Origin: Candidatus Hydrothermarchaeum profundi
Lineage (GTDB): Archaea; Hydrothermarchaeota; Hydrothermarchaeia; Hydrothermarchaeales; Hydrothermarchaeaceae
NCBI GenBank assembly: GCA_002011125.2
Contig: MTMF02000009.1
Coordinates: 648,889 to 712,888, forward strand
Direction of reading: 5' to 3'
DNA: 64,000 bases
The translations under genes were made by a program, and so were the position numbers. Shown here piece by piece: positions 15,372 to 23,950 of this stretch. Positions within the stretch are counted from its first letter, which is position 1. Every line of letters starts with the position of its first letter. Below the pieces are notes generated by a model. It searched no databases, had not been told where the DNA came from, and saw only the letters and a list, made by a program, of their open reading frames with translations.

Positions 15372-16298
15372 TCAGCTATGAGGAACATCCCAGAGATAAC
15401 CTATCATGCTAAGGACAATAAAGAATCCTATTATAATTAAGCCGATTATAGTTCTCTTTCTCTTTGTGGATTGGGTTTCTTTGCTTCTATCGATATAAGG
15501 AAGAAGCGTAAGCAACGAGGCCGTTAAGAGGAGTACCAAGATGTAAAGAAAGTTTAGCGAAGGGCTTAGAAACCCGATTCCTCTTTCTATCACGTACAGC
15601 CATAGGAACAGCCATATTGGCTTAAGTTGGGTTTGAAGTTCAGGACCAACTTTAGGAGATAGGCTAAAAGGCTCTATTACTGAATAAAGCAGAAGAAATC
15701 CCAATGTAATCATCCCAATACCAACTTCACTCCATTCGAGTTTTCTTTTCCTTACATAAGAGTAGTGAAGTGCCAGAAATATCATTGAAACAATTGGAAG
15801 AAACCCAATATGCATCATGTAAAATCTCGCTAGAGAACGGGAGGTTATCTCACTTCCCCCAAGCACTAGGCGTTCTAAAGCCCCTCCTACAAGTGGAGTA
15901 TAGGCTATTATTGAGGCAGTTACTCTGGCACTCCAATACCCTACTTCGTCCCATCTCAGGAGATAGCCTGAGAAAACAAATAAAACAGTTATAATCAAGA
16001 GCAATCCGCCCATGACCCAAGGCTTCTTATGAATCTTATAGGTTCCCATAAAGAAAACCCTAACCATGTGGAGAAGGATTGAGATGAGTAGAAGATGAGT
16101 AGACCAGTGATGAAGAGATAAGAGAATTTTCCCGAAATAGACATATTCTGAGATGTACTGGATGCTCTCGTAAGCCCTTTCTGGCGCGGGTTCATACCAA
16201 AAGCTAAGCAAGATTCCAGAAGATACGAGAATAACAGCATTTGTTACGCTAATAACACTAAACCAGTAGATAGGGTTAAATTCTTTGGACATTTTCAT
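15372..16298 (-). CDS. Cytochrome b/b6 of a Rieske-cytochrome b complex (b6 plus short subunit IV fused)
   Basis: SLHHW...LLHMVRVF, GYLLRWD..GYW, RFYMMH...ALH heme ligands; Qo motif appears as KPIWL. Confidence 0.9.
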   Translation of the reverse strand: MKMSKEFNPIYWFSVISVTNAVILVSSGILLSFWYEPAPERAYESIQYISEYVYFGKILLSLHHWSTHLLLISILLHMVRVFFMGTYKIHKKPWVMGGLLLIITVLFVFSGYLLRWDEVGYWSARVTASIIAYTPLVGGALERLVLGGSEITSRSLARFYMMHIGFLPIVSMIFLALHYSYVRKRKLEWSEVGIGMITLGFLLLYSVIEPFSLSPKVGPELQTQLKPIWLFLWLYVIERGIGFLSPSLNFLYILVLLLTASLLTLLPYIDRSKETQSTKRKRTIIGLIIIGFFIVLSMIGYLWDVPHS

Positions 16299-16726
16299 TT
16301 CTCTGCGTAGACCTCGCCGTTCTTAACTTCTATCTTGATAGGCGTGAGTCCTCTAGGAGCTGGACCTGAAATCCTTTCACCAGTTACTGGATCAAAAGTT
16401 GAACCATGGCATGGACACTCGAGTAAGCCTTTGCCGGGAAGTGCCCTGCCGCTCACGGGACACCCCATATGAGGGCAGGAGGCAAGAAAAGCATGTAGCC
16501 CTTGGTAGTTTACGAGAATACCGGGCTCTCCTAAGAAATCAAAGACTTTTACACTTCCTACCCTTATCTCGTCTACACTACCTATTAGAACAGACTCCTG
16601 AGGCGAAGAGTAAACTTGTTCTGGTGCTCCACGCTTTAGAAAATATACCGAACTTAAGAAAGAAAGACTGGTAATGGATACTACTATCTTAGCCATATAC
16701 TCGAGGAACTTTCTTCTTTTCATCAC
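16295..16726 (-). CDS. Rieske [2Fe-2S] protein with Tat signal
   Basis: KRRKFL Tat motif plus TM; CPHMGC and CPCHGS boxes; GPAP. Confidence 0.93.
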   Translation of the reverse strand: MMKRRKFLEYMAKIVVSITSLSFLSSVYFLKRGAPEQVYSSPQESVLIGSVDEIRVGSVKVFDFLGEPGILVNYQGLHAFLASCPHMGCPVSGRALPGKGLLECPCHGSTFDPVTGERISGPAPRGLTPIKIEVKNGEVYAEK

Positions 16727-18513
16727 CTAAACCTCTTCATTAAGTAAACTAAAAAAATGACTCCCAGTAGAGCCATTAAAAAGATATATTCTAGAAAAGG
16801 CCTAACGTTAAGATATTTTGGATTTATGACTCTGTGAGAATCAGAGTGGCAGTTTACACACTCATCCGGCTCAGTTTCCCTATCTTTTTCAGGGAGGCCT
16901 AAATCGTCAGGAGCATTCCACTCTAACCCAAAAAGCCAAGGAGCGAAGTTCACAGTATAAGGAAGAGCATTTTCATCTATCTCGGAGGTATTTCTAATAT
17001 TAATTATAAACAACCCCGAAGAATTGGCTACAATCTCGTGTCCGCCATATACCGGGAAATTCAGCACAGGATAAATGTGCGAATCTTTTGTTCCGAATAG
17101 AACCCACGTCGCCTTTGCCCGTTGCTCAGATGCGTTATGGCAGCTTATACAATCCCTAGCCTTACCGAAGCCGTGGGAAACTTTGTCCATATGGATCCAA
17201 AGTATGGCTTTATTGTTGCTTGGCAAGCTATCTATCGTTCCTACTATTGCATAGGCATCTCTAGATTTTTCTCTTATGCCTGGGATGTTTCTGAATTTTA
17301 TGCCTGTTTGATTTAACTCAAATTTTTGATTAAAAACAGCATGAGGTACAGGTTTAACAGGTATCCATATACCCTTTTGATCTCGAATCAAAATAGGCTC
17401 CGATAAAGCTCCATAGTATGCTATTTTGGTTAGCGGATTTAGCTGGCCATAGAAGCTTCCGTTATTCCAAAAGACCATTTGATATCCTCCCAATTCCTGG
17501 ATGTGGCATGCTTCACAGGAAACTTTTTCATGAACACTTTTCTTTATCTCTTTCTCAATTTCCAAGTGGCAGTTACCACATGTAGCTTCTCTGGAGATAT
17601 TGTGGTCCTGATATATGTGACAATCTAGGCAACTTAAATTCTCTTCAAAATGTATGTCCGGTGGGAGGAAAGGTATAGAAGATTCTTGACGGTAAAATCC
17701 AGCTCCTCTACGATAGTCTTCAGCTCCTACATGACATATGCCTCTTCCTCCTCCAAGACCACAGCTTTCTGCGGGTGGCCTCTTGTTAAAAAAATGTCTT
17801 CCTTCAGCAGGATTATAATGGCAGTCAAGACAGGAGGTATGGCACTGCTGGCATGCACGTTCATTTAGCTTTGCTTGTTCTATCGTATAGTCGGTTGATA
17901 GGGTCTCTGCAATGGTATCTAAGTTCTTAAGCCAGTAGCCACAGTCATGTGGCCCCATCGGTGGAGTAACGAAATCTGAGTACTGTCTCTGCGTCAGCGT
18001 AAGTCCCATCGGCGTTGTTAGAAAATCTTTCAGTTCTTTGGGGTGACACTTGCCGCAAGTAGCATTAGCTATGGAAGGACTAAAGGCAAGAGTTATTGGG
18101 TCTCTATCATGGTAGAGTACGCTTCTTATCTCGAAATTTGGGAAAAAAAGATAAGGAGGCTCTGACCGCTGGGGAACCAACGCAGGTAAGATCTTATACC
18201 TATCTTCTACAGGTTTAACTCTCTCCTTAGATATAACTAGAAGTCTAGGCATTCCTTCGTGAGCCCCTATGAGTGTTTTATTTTCAGGATTTCCTAGGTG
18301 GCAGTCTTGGCAGTTTGGTCCGCCTAAGCCTAACCTAAACATCTTGCTCTCTTTCCAAACTTCTTCATTTGTGAAATAAAACTGTGGAAAACCCAGCTCT
18401 TCCAGTCTACTCTGGTTAGAATGGCACTCTATACAACTATTTTGAGCGTAAGCCAGCCCGATTACCCATATATAAATGAAGATAATCGCCTTTTTCATAC
18501 TACCCTTTCTCAT
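16723..18513 (-). CDS. Membrane-anchored multiheme cytochrome c (10 CxxCH)
   Basis: Signal peptide; CIECH, CQDCH, CGKCH, CQQCH, CLDCH, CLDCH, CGNCH, CEACH, CISCH, CVNCH; extra CX8CH; C-terminal TM. Confidence 0.92.
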   Translation of the reverse strand: MRKGSMKKAIIFIYIWVIGLAYAQNSCIECHSNQSRLEELGFPQFYFTNEEVWKESKMFRLGLGGPNCQDCHLGNPENKTLIGAHEGMPRLLVISKERVKPVEDRYKILPALVPQRSEPPYLFFPNFEIRSVLYHDRDPITLAFSPSIANATCGKCHPKELKDFLTTPMGLTLTQRQYSDFVTPPMGPHDCGYWLKNLDTIAETLSTDYTIEQAKLNERACQQCHTSCLDCHYNPAEGRHFFNKRPPAESCGLGGGRGICHVGAEDYRRGAGFYRQESSIPFLPPDIHFEENLSCLDCHIYQDHNISREATCGNCHLEIEKEIKKSVHEKVSCEACHIQELGGYQMVFWNNGSFYGQLNPLTKIAYYGALSEPILIRDQKGIWIPVKPVPHAVFNQKFELNQTGIKFRNIPGIREKSRDAYAIVGTIDSLPSNNKAILWIHMDKVSHGFGKARDCISCHNASEQRAKATWVLFGTKDSHIYPVLNFPVYGGHEIVANSSGLFIINIRNTSEIDENALPYTVNFAPWLFGLEWNAPDDLGLPEKDRETEPDECVNCHSDSHRVINPKYLNVRPFLEYIFLMALLGVIFLVYLMKRFR

Positions 18514-23528: not shown

Positions 23529-23554
23529 AGTAATTAAAACTAATTTCCTAACCT

Positions 23555-23950
23555 TTAAGAACGTTGGGCTTTTACTTCAACGCTGCCAAATTTTTCGAAT
23601 TCTAATATGAGAGTTATCTCATCTTCTGAAGGATCAGCTCCAAATGCCATTATATGATAGCCGCCTCTTTTAAGTGGCACCGTTTCTCCTTTTGGAATCT
23701 CAATTTTATCAACCTTTAGCATCATTCCGCCTGCTATGGTATGAAGCTCTACTTTTGCATTTGGAAACTCCTTTATTTTAGCCGAGATTAGATTATCTGC
23801 TCCTCCATGATTCTCTATAACCATAAAAATGGAGATAGCATTAGACATCCCGGAAGACATGAAATATACATCATGGACCTTGATCTCCGGAGGATTATTT
23901 ATGCATCCTGCTGCTACTATAAATATAGCGAGTAGAAGATATCTTCCCAT
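23555..23950 (-). CDS. Copper chaperone PCu(A)C family lipoprotein
   Basis: VELH...MM...LKRGGYHIM metal motif, D-N-L; lipobox AAGC; start placed at MGRYLL. Confidence 0.85.
   Translation of the reverse strand: MGRYLLLAIFIVAAGCINNPPEIKVHDVYFMSSGMSNAISIFMVIENHGGADNLISAKIKEFPNAKVELHTIAGGMMLKVDKIEIPKGETVPLKRGGYHIMAFGADPSEDEITLILEFEKFGSVEVKAQRS

Follow-up and report, generated by a model that had tools for sequence, protein, structure and literature searches.

A heme-bearing beta-propeller with a MacB-type ABC transporter, divergent from a multiheme cytochrome operon in Candidatus Hydrothermarchaeum profundi: a conserved system with known analogues for both halves

Nitrous oxide reductase (NosZ) is a seven-bladed beta-propeller with seven conserved His ligands of its CuZ centre, and it is served by the ATP-binding cassette (ABC) system NosDFY and the Cu(I) chaperone NosL. 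A locus with comparable parts is described here from the archaeon Candidatus Hydrothermarchaeum profundi, within a stretch of 64,000 nucleotides (contig MTMF02000009.1, positions 648,889 to 712,888 of the forward strand; hereafter the window). The left arm of the locus encodes a thioredoxin-fold (Trx) lipoprotein, a multiheme cytochrome c, a Rieske protein and a cytochrome b (cyt b). The right arm, divergent from it, encodes a beta-propeller lipoprotein with a C-terminal heme-attachment motif and the two permeases and ATPase of an ABC transporter, followed by a convergent gene for a PCuAC-type Cu(I) chaperone. Likeness to the NosZ system consists in an extracytoplasmic propeller, an ABC system acting outside the membrane and a lipoprotein Cu(I) chaperone. 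However, the ABC transporter is of the FtsX/MacB type and not ABC-2 (NosY), there is no NosD, the propeller has six blades in its model and no CuA domain, and the partners found in operons of the propeller family are a TPR protein, a DUF4418 protein and PCuAC.

The closest known architecture found, compared by hidden Markov models and by published description, is the clade III L-nosZ cluster. The cited passages describe these clusters as lacking nosDFYL and as encoding b-type cytochromes and a MacB-type transporter (PMC13685413), and a 2026 metagenomic study, in the part cited, reports clade III nosZ from Nitrospirota, Nitrospinota, Desulfobacterota and other groups, with genes for transporters and cytochromes nearby (PMC13477213). 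The original prediction had taken the present locus for an undescribed system; given these clusters, it can no longer be called one without precedent. Permeases of the FtsX/MacB_PCD kind, an ATPase and a cyt b are encoded in the window and NosD, NosF and NosY are not, a resemblance that is architectural only. As far as the cited descriptions go, the likeness covers a lactonase/YVTN-type propeller, a MacB-type ABC transporter, b-type cytochromes, the lack of nosDFYL, and overlapping host phyla (Nitrospirota and Desulfobacterota). In contrast to L-NosZ, the propeller family has a C-terminal c heme and no cupredoxin/CuA domain, four conserved His and three Cys instead of a His-only cluster site, a six-bladed model, and TPR, DUF4418 and PCuAC partners.

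The left arm also has described analogues. Archaeal clusters of cytochrome b and multiheme cytochrome genes in Methanoperedenaceae are presented, in the passages cited, as menaquinone:cytochrome c oxidoreductases (PMC7327174). Those clusters and the Geobacter ExtNOP system share with the window a cyt b beside a multiheme cytochrome, leading from the quinone pool to the outside, but the Methanoperedenaceae cytochromes quoted there carry 6 hemes, whereas the window cytochrome has about 11 and a beta-rich domain. The left arm is of this known kind, a quinol:cytochrome c oxidoreductase with a multiheme cytochrome. The best NCBIfam model for its cyt b points the same way, this being ExtP (NF040969) at 182 bits against a cut-off of 290, a score that leaves the protein outside that family; ExtN and ExtO give about 20 bits against cut-offs of 200.

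The locus is a real conserved system, more than a chance arrangement and partly as first proposed, with known analogues for both halves. Its core, the module of propeller, ABC transporter and copper chaperone, is real and widely conserved. A scan of one genome per species, with an alignment of 12 rows as query, gave 80 propeller loci (numbered with the prefix L), each viewed over 10 kb on either side of the propeller. A permease gene directly downstream (tblastn with the window proteins; start within 1.5 kb on the same strand) is present in 63 of the 69 assessable loci, from Nitrospirota, Desulfobulbia and this archaeon, 11 loci being too short downstream to judge. The propeller thus has its own ABC transporter, as had been claimed. 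The claimed tie to a copper chaperone is also borne out, NosL or PCuAC being encoded in 17 of the 52 operons with at least 4 kb of downstream sequence (NosL 17, PCuAC 3). The same 52 operons include an ATPase in 42 cases, a TPR protein in 33 and a DUF4418 Cys-rich membrane protein in 10. All products of the window locus except the ATPase are predicted to be located outside the cytoplasmic membrane or to reach across it, because of lipobox-like signals (propeller, PCuAC, and Trx after its Met27), the RR motif of the Rieske protein and the hydrophobic C-terminal helix of the cytochrome. The preferred interpretation is that a quinol-fed cytochrome and a copper-loaded heme propeller form an outward-facing, membrane-attached redox system of two modules; it is put forward tentatively, with a chance judged a little short of even.

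The propeller belongs to a family of its own. A word-seeded search yields ten close homologues at 58–100% identity, the window's own protein included, and a second tier at 28–34%. One close homologue (P0002) is 86% identical to the window propeller, and one, from the Hydrothermarchaeota genus Candidatus Pyrohabitans, carries the source name YncE family protein. Four of the 80 loci (L001–L004) are from Hydrothermarchaeota-type archaea, with propeller identities of 58–65%; the other 76 are almost all from Nitrospirota/Thermodesulfovibrionales, Desulfobulbia and relatives, with identities of 26–35%. A crude caller of open reading frames (ORFs) recovered the propeller in 73 of the 80 loci and in the window, an antisense ORF displacing it in L037, L044, L060, L065, L067, L070 and L071. 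The alignment holds 73 of 76 ORFs (at least 300 amino acids (aa)), three short ones having been dropped. A search of a representative library is of little use for the size of the family: its 288 matches at E<=1e-30 do not measure it, and giant YVTN-repeat proteins dominate the best 150, among which about 14 matches of near-family length and 3 fragments look like members. A search for longer proteins (>720 aa) found no fused forms of the family, only generic YVTN proteins, which is weak evidence.

The C-terminal CxxCH (CGACH, residues 357–361) is kept in 72 of 73 members, so that the description of the propeller as heme-binding stands. Three residues, H59, H252 and D314, are kept in all 73 sequences. 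C164, C206, C357, C360 and H361 are each kept in 72, H56, M222, H313 and R329 in 71, and C396 and W402 in 70. The propeller had also been called metal-binding; the conserved His/Cys set agrees with this, metal binding being read from that set and not directly visible in the sequence. Two long-branch paralogues (L010_14 and L018_24) are without H56, M222, H313, R329 and C396, and have lost C164 or C206, one each. Six divergent database relatives show a joint loss of H56, M222, H313 and C396, with C164 gone in some. Both groups still keep H59, H252, D314 and the CxxCH. From these patterns H56, C164, M222, H313 and C396 are read as one functional site separable from heme binding, because H56, M222, H313 and C396 are lost together while the CxxCH stays. 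Another relative (P0143) carries an extra inserted CxxCH segment.

A maximum-likelihood tree of the 73 rows, with SH-aLRT support values and rooted at the midpoint purely for display, groups the five archaeal sequences in one clade (support 100) on a long branch, with the window propeller as the earliest branch of the clade. This clade is sister (support 97) to a large Nitrospirota clade whose operons often include the TPR protein and NosL.

An AlphaFold2 (AF2) model of the propeller (predicted local distance difference test (pLDDT) 87.5, predicted template modelling score 0.84) shows 24 strands, read as six four-stranded blades, with the C-terminal strand 395–402 completing blade 1. C396, C164, C206, H252 and H313/D314 are at residue 2–3 of the first strand of blades 1, 3, 4, 5 and 6, H56/H59 and M222 are in turns between second and third strands, and the CxxCH helix (357–364) directly follows the last strand of blade 6. 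In propellers generally, such strand and turn positions share one face around the central opening. On this model the heme would lie over the His/Cys ring at the central opening.

The known families that contain propellers do not account for this one. Pfam gives only generic models, i.e. PD40 (6.1e-12), Cytochrom_D1 (4.7e-7, over 85 residues) and Lactonase (1.2e-4), and by Pfam and NCBIfam models the protein is outside NosZ, NirS, L-NosZ and hydrazine synthase, in agreement with the original prediction. The best named NCBIfam model is in fact that of clade III L-NosZ (NF052460), but the score is 48.9 bits over residues 209–267 against a cut-off of 700; on 13 other family members this model gives 21–51 bits in 12 and no hit in one. 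For NosZ of clades I and II, there is no cupredoxin or COX2-type Pfam hit at E<=0.01 and the C-terminus is the CxxCH, while of a CuZ-type site only H56, H59, H252 and H313 are conserved, in a model of six blades. The Cytochrom_D1 match (29.1 bits) covers profile positions 36–120 of 368, which sets aside cytochrome cd1 (NirS/NirN/NirF). Hydrazine synthase beta is set aside by 44.9 bits against a cut-off of 560 (NF052340), and thiocyanate dehydrogenase by PDB matches of E-value 0.008–0.019 (17–18 bits) with template modelling (TM) scores of 0.46–0.48 and a root-mean-square deviation >10 A. The best PDB sequence matches are the archaeal S-layer YVTN domain 1l0q (1.2e-19) and hydrazine synthase beta (5c2v_B, 2.4e-15). 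Foldseek neighbours, at TM 0.39–0.48, are the S-layer YVTN domain, hydrazine synthase beta, NirN/NirF (0.39–0.41) and thiocyanate dehydrogenase; the likeness to all four is confined to generic blade repeats, and none has the C-terminal CxxCH or the ligand set of the family. Look-alikes found with a protein language model are unnamed YncE/lactonase-type clusters. Neither the propeller family nor the Cys-Cys permease nor the cytochrome family has been characterised: no name for the propeller family, its operon or the cytochrome was found in the databases and literature searched, and literature searches on DUF4418, on NosL with FtsX and beta-propeller, and on MacB with nosZ, cytochrome b and propeller gave no description of the propeller family.

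The ABC transporter is of the MacB/FtsX (type VII) class: FtsX is matched twice and MacB_PCD once, a large MacB-like extracytoplasmic domain lies between the first and second membrane helices (permease hydrophobic segments at 24–42 and from about 259), and the LolD/MacB-like ATPase is separate. The best NCBIfam model for the ATPase is LolD, at 267.9 bits below the cut-off of 307.75. A vicinal Cys-Cys pair in the permease extracytoplasmic domain is present in 68 of 68 sequences, both window copies included, and in 51 of 51 rows of a second alignment (A4). A co-fold of the two permease extracytoplasmic domains with the propeller scored 0.02 against a mark of 0.32, which counts neither for nor against binding. 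The two window permeases are 54% identical as proteins. Within their genes, a 203-nt tract (21214–21416 and 23109–23311) covering membrane helices two and three with the intervening loop shows 96% nucleotide identity. This looks like gene conversion, which perhaps keeps both permeases matched to the single ATPase.

The window PCuAC has an H-x-M box (GGYHIM) and an ELH box common to five bacterial operon copies. The His/Met residues of this motif have a Cu(I) role in PCuAC proteins, and the motif together with a Pfam PF04314 score above the gathering threshold (Table 1) places the protein in that class. A profile search of all loci finds a PCuAC gene after the ATPase gene and on the same strand in L006, L007, L015, L017 and L018, and tblastn adds L013. 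The DUF4418 proteins have four conserved Cys and the NosL copies keep CxxCGM. Two Desulfobulbia operons (L008, L010) also encode a secreted Redoxin/AhpC-type thiol oxidoreductase.

Other genes are found around the bacterial propellers. A YeeE/YedE-type "Sulphur transport" protein (Pfam PF04143, 8e-54) is encoded in L013, L015, L016, L017 and L018, of the PCuAC-bearing Nitrospirota clade, immediately upstream of the propeller and on the same strand. Some operons have a second module with an FtsX permease of 566–567 aa carrying an extra N-terminal membrane part (L010 13009–15816, L012 5121–6821, L011 8340–10040, L018 17892–20555); in L010 and L018 it adjoins the divergent propeller paralogue in which most of the His/Cys ring is lost. 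A DUF4418-FtsX fusion is no more than a lead, four permease N-termini matching the DUF4418 profile weakly (E 6e-5 to 0.14) and Pfam giving no match. In 7 Nitrospirota loci a convergent c7-like cytochrome and a cytochrome b561 lie downstream of the propeller. The pair is read as inherited synteny, because it sits within a conserved unrelated block (pseudouridine synthase, amino-acid transporter).

The constancy of the transporter raises metal trafficking as an alternative, in which the ABC system, copper chaperones, DUF4418 protein and propeller would handle or detoxify copper or another thiophilic metal. The heme propeller would then be a metal acceptor, a metallochaperone or a Cu(I)/Cu(II) redox partner, and the Rieske/cyt b-cytochrome operon would be separate; this is judged unlikely. 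AztD and PedA2 are propeller accessory proteins of metal ABC transporters, and one family member (P0018) shows a weak hit to the zinc metallochaperone propeller AztD (20.6 bits). No other partner of the propeller is nearly as constant as the ABC system, and the Cys-rich associates (permease Cys pair, DUF4418, NosL) suggest a metal relay, while the bacterial loci show no constant electron donor. After the orphan propeller of L078 there are two small secreted ORFs (11090–11994), one of them weakly CusF-like (E 0.0012, below the Pfam cut-off). However, a covalent c heme throughout nearly the whole family is unexpected for a simple chaperone, a membrane-fusion or outer-membrane partner is missing from the conserved operon, no ABC transporter adjoins the propeller in six loci, and the propeller stands beside the multiheme cytochrome in all five archaeal loci.

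The cytochrome has a signal peptide, 10 CxxCH motifs, a CX8CH motif, a beta-rich domain and a C-terminal membrane helix. It had been described as a decaheme protein. The ten CxxCH motifs are there, but the CX8CH (CGLGGGRGICH, ORF residues 251–261) is a likely non-canonical heme-binding site. With the Cys, Cys and His columns of this motif unchanged across all 39 homologues, eleven hemes are likely. The AF2 model is poor at precisely this place (pLDDT below 50 at model residues 245–256). Among the 39 aligned homologues, nine CxxCH and the CX8CH columns are invariant or have one exception, as have several residues outside the heme motifs (free Cys191, Arg268/Arg269, Lys363, Lys387, Tyr344, His447 and others). 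By this comparison the archaeal proteins have added the membrane helix and, close to the C-terminus, the tenth CxxCH. The family comprises 87 matches, all with generic names only. Archaeal members are 42–72% identical, and bacterial homologues (33–40%) come from Nitrospirae, Thermodesulfovibrionaceae, Desulfobulbaceae, Calditerrivibrio and Limisalsivibrio. A Deferribacter decaheme cytochrome encoded beside nap-hao-hcp (PMC6896113) is a lead only, as a possible relative of the window cytochrome.

The original prediction saw no recognisable terminal enzyme in the locus, which is now doubtful: the cytochrome combines a non-heme domain rich in beta structure with many invariant residues outside its heme motifs, its fold weakly matches that of octaheme tetrathionate reductase (OTR), and it may be an enzyme in its own right. 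A second alternative follows these lines, that the cytochrome is a terminal OTR-like reductase (of e.g. tetrathionate, nitrite, hydroxylamine or sulfite) fed by Rieske/cyt b, with the propeller an accessory electron carrier, a substrate-handling partner or an unrelated second activity. This too is judged unlikely. In the AF2 model (pLDDT 84.3; beta-rich domain at about residues 339–503) the only PDB fold match at E<=0.001 is OTR (1sp3; E 2e-5, probability 1.00), MccA being second at E 0.12. OTR and the window protein also have a similar mass per heme. The cited passages give <5 kDa per heme for electron carriers, >7 for catalytic proteins and 6.1 for OTR (PMC7096707); our arithmetic gives about 6.0–6.6 for the window cytochrome, near OTR and above the carrier range. 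Bacterial homologues of the cytochrome occur without a propeller within 10 kb, which also speaks for this alternative. Against it, the 1sp3 match (445 aligned columns, identity 14%) has low TM scores of 0.27/0.35 and comes from a model without hemes. The NCBIfam octaheme_Shew hit (TIGR04315) is 18 bits against a cut-off of 375, outside that family, and there is no sequence match to solved enzymes below E 0.1. The window cytochrome differs from OTR in its larger number of hemes, CX8CH motif and membrane anchor, and its homologues are all unnamed. This alternative also leaves the His/Cys ring of the propeller and its dedicated ABC/chaperone system unexplained.

The Rieske protein has CPHMGC and CPCHGS boxes, an RR (Tat-like) N-terminus and one hydrophobic segment. 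The cyt b consists of a b6-like N-terminal part fused to a subunit-IV-like C-terminal part, with about 7 hydrophobic segments and no Cys, and its best solved relatives are cytochromes b6 (1e-34 in the PDB). Heme ligands of cytochromes b are recognised by the spacing of their His pairs, and His77/His90 and His163/His178 have the expected spacing. These features, with the Pfam hits, place the two proteins in the Rieske/cytochrome b class. The listed Trx ORF has a 26-residue N-terminal extension that is missing in the L001–L003 homologues, the Trx homologues of L001–L004 being of 132–141 aa and in the same position. Translation more probably begins at Met27 (18914), which precedes a lipobox-like LVGC; the divergent intergenic region would therefore be about 196 nt.

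The Trx, cytochrome, Rieske and cyt b genes form one translationally coupled operon, with 4 nt of overlap between each successive pair, as first noted. The linkage of this arm to the other had been proposed from the window alone, and its inner part holds: cytochrome, Trx and propeller genes are adjacent in 5 of 5 archaeal loci (the four relatives and the window), with the L001–L004 cytochromes (49–50% identity) and Trx (34–39%) divergent from the propeller. This triad is kept through rearrangement, because, a single TIM-barrel gene excepted, the remaining ORFs of the two Pyrohabitans loci L001 and L002 are unmatched in the 64 kb window. Between the arms, the block AAAAATTTATATA is identical in the window and in L001–L004, as is AGGAGGTGAA, which is followed by the GTG start upstream of the propeller. 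By this conservation the region has a predicted archaeal promoter and a Shine-Dalgarno/GTG start. Co-occurrence with propeller homologues, proposed originally as a check, comes out unevenly: the ABC partner is family-wide, the pairing of cytochrome and Trx with the propeller is archaeal only, and Rieske/cyt b was seen at the locus in the window alone. That the arms are unrelated neighbours, a cytochrome chain for extracellular electron transfer beside a propeller-ABC module for something else, is very unlikely. In its favour, the two modules are separate in bacteria, archaeal cytochrome b and multiheme clusters are known as menaquinone:cytochrome c oxidoreductases (PMC7327174), and the multiheme cytochromes of Hydrothermarchaeota are mentioned generically, in the passage cited, as possible extracellular electron-transfer components (PMC6759336), but the triad persists in all five archaeal loci amid differing surroundings, with a short divergent intergenic region common to both operons.

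Under the preferred interpretation of a two-module redox system, the Rieske/cytochrome b6-type complex would oxidise membrane quinol, and electrons would pass to the membrane-anchored cytochrome c with its roughly 11 hemes. The Trx lipoprotein would keep extracytoplasmic Cys reduced, those of the heme-attachment motifs and/or the conserved Cys of the propeller. In the propeller, the c heme over the central opening would lie beside the conserved ring of His, Cys, Asp and Arg, which would form a second, probably copper-containing, site. This site would be loaded or maintained by the MacB-type ABC machine, with its Cys-Cys pair, and by a Cu(I) chaperone, which is PCuAC in the window and NosL in many bacteria; NosDFY and NosL serve NosZ in a parallel way. 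The propeller would most likely exchange electrons with the multiheme cytochrome in this archaeal lineage, and would act on a small extracytoplasmic substrate containing nitrogen or sulfur. This interpretation and the alternatives overlap in part.

A number of observations weigh against the two-module system. The Rieske/cyt b link of the original prediction is seen in the window only. It is absent at the four nearest archaeal loci, where a radical-SAM gene follows the cytochrome instead, and from 75 of 76 bacterial loci, the remaining one having a weak, distant cyt b-like match; Rieske and cyt b may be elsewhere in the L001–L004 genomes. Within 10 kb of the bacterial propellers there is no homologue of the 596-aa cytochrome. 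The link between cytochrome and propeller is therefore specific to this lineage, and inherited synteny could account for it. Six of the 69 assessable loci (L002, L030, L031, L045, L066, L078) have no ABC transporter adjoining the propeller. Among them, L002 lacks the ABC genes despite 10 kb of downstream sequence and is the only near archaeal relative long enough to judge; L001, L003 and L004 show none either, their sequences ending too soon downstream to count as absence. The window is consequently the sole archaeal locus seen with ABC genes and PCuAC beside the propeller. Neither NosL nor PCuAC is present in 35 of the 52 operons. The site cannot be a NosZ-type CuZ centre because only four His are conserved, and all fold matches of the propeller are generic (TM <= 0.5). 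Gene identities, motifs, conservation and synteny are direct observations, whereas the position of the heme near the ring is derived from general propeller topology, and we infer copper dependence, the direction of electron flow, catalysis by the propeller and its substrate. The cytochrome is itself enzyme-like, and therefore the propeller need not be the catalytic subunit.

A bolder form of the proposal has a low probability. The propeller family would be a new class of extracytoplasmic oxidoreductase, with a c heme directly over a copper-thiolate/histidine site at the centre of a six-bladed propeller, and would have its own assembly system, in which the mechanotransducing MacB-type ABC transporter, a Cys-Cys relay and NosL or PCuAC build the copper site. 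As a heme-dependent analogue of the nitrous oxide reductases, it would reduce N2O or another small oxide of nitrogen or sulfur in Nitrospirota, Desulfobulbia and Hydrothermarchaeota that live anaerobically and cycle sulfur, and in this archaeon it would be coupled to energy conservation through the OTR-like cytochrome and Rieske/cyt b.

The layout of the locus is given in Table 1. All nine ORFs of the divergent locus originally proposed are in place and have family support from Pfam. The FtsX1/ATPase and ATPase/FtsX2 overlaps are each 8 nt, and the stop codons of the convergent PCuAC gene and the ABC operon are 26 nt apart.

Table 1. Genes and intergenic region of the divergent locus, in window coordinates
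Feature	Positions	Strand	Evidence
Cytochrome b (308 aa)	15372..16298	-	Pfam Cytochrome_B 7.6e-35, Cytochrom_B_C 2.3e-5
Rieske 2Fe-2S protein	16295..16726	-	Pfam Rieske 4e-13
Multiheme cytochrome c (596 aa)	16723..18513	-	Motif counts, alignment, model
Thioredoxin-fold lipoprotein, CIYC motif	18510..18992	-	Pfam Thioredoxin 1.2e-19
Divergent intergenic region with predicted propeller promoter	18993..19110	.	Blocks conserved versus L001–L004
Monoheme beta-propeller lipoprotein (411 aa)	19111..20346	+	Generic propeller Pfam models; CGACH 357–361
FtsX/MacB-type permease 1	20416..21633	+	Pfam FtsX 3.9e-15; Cys115-Cys116
ABC ATPase, LolD/MacB-like	21626..22312	+	Pfam ABC_tran 9.3e-36
FtsX/MacB-type permease 2	22305..23528	+	Pfam FtsX 2.3e-15, MacB_PCD 2.2e-6; Cys116-Cys117
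PCuAC-type Cu(I) chaperone lipoprotein	23555..23989	-	Pfam PCuAC 5.6e-16, 58.8 bits (cut-off 29.4)

Genes for glutamate dehydrogenase and adenylosuccinate lyase flank the locus. No other respiratory gene occurs in the 64 kb window, whose remaining content is archaeal housekeeping, e.g. STT3, an RNA polymerase subunit, an exosome component, GINS, diphthamide synthesis and an archaeal prepilin peptidase. One operon (11032–13656) encodes an ABC-2 type transporter with two permeases and one ATPase, and adjoins a xylose-isomerase-like TIM-barrel gene (10161–10994), which is the one gene beyond the triad that the window has in common with the Pyrohabitans loci. A secreted subtilase of 1482 aa (26575–31023) shows a Tk-SP-type N-propeptide, a beta-helix domain and a purple-acid-phosphatase N-terminal/fn3-like domain, and is followed by a 1397-aa ORF (31177–35370) with no Pfam match at E<=1e-6. 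A MazE-like antitoxin gene and a PIN-domain gene (35469–36151) are in a VapBC-type toxin-antitoxin arrangement. Four successive ORFs of 159–191 aa without Pfam match (within 58109–61347) are on the same strand as, and directly downstream of, the archaeal type IV prepilin peptidase gene (60175–61347), and may encode pilin-like substrates.

As a candidate for a redox enzyme system not yet described, the locus is open to test. Should the propeller prove to be a heme/copper enzyme served by an assembly machine of its own, it would add a new catalytic type to the few extracytoplasmic metallo-propeller enzymes (NosZ, L-NosZ, thiocyanate dehydrogenase). It would also indicate that anaerobic Nitrospirota, Desulfobulbia and subsurface archaea, which are widespread, carry out a respiratory or detoxifying reaction that has escaped recognition. 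The Cys-Cys pair, invariant in the permeases, would offer a concrete handle on how MacB-type ABC "mechanotransducers" move metal or sulfur outside the membrane, and the same mechanistic question applies to the MacB-type transporter of the clade III nosZ clusters. Under the alternative explanations as well, the propeller family, its operon and the OTR-like cytochrome are without a name in the databases and literature searched.

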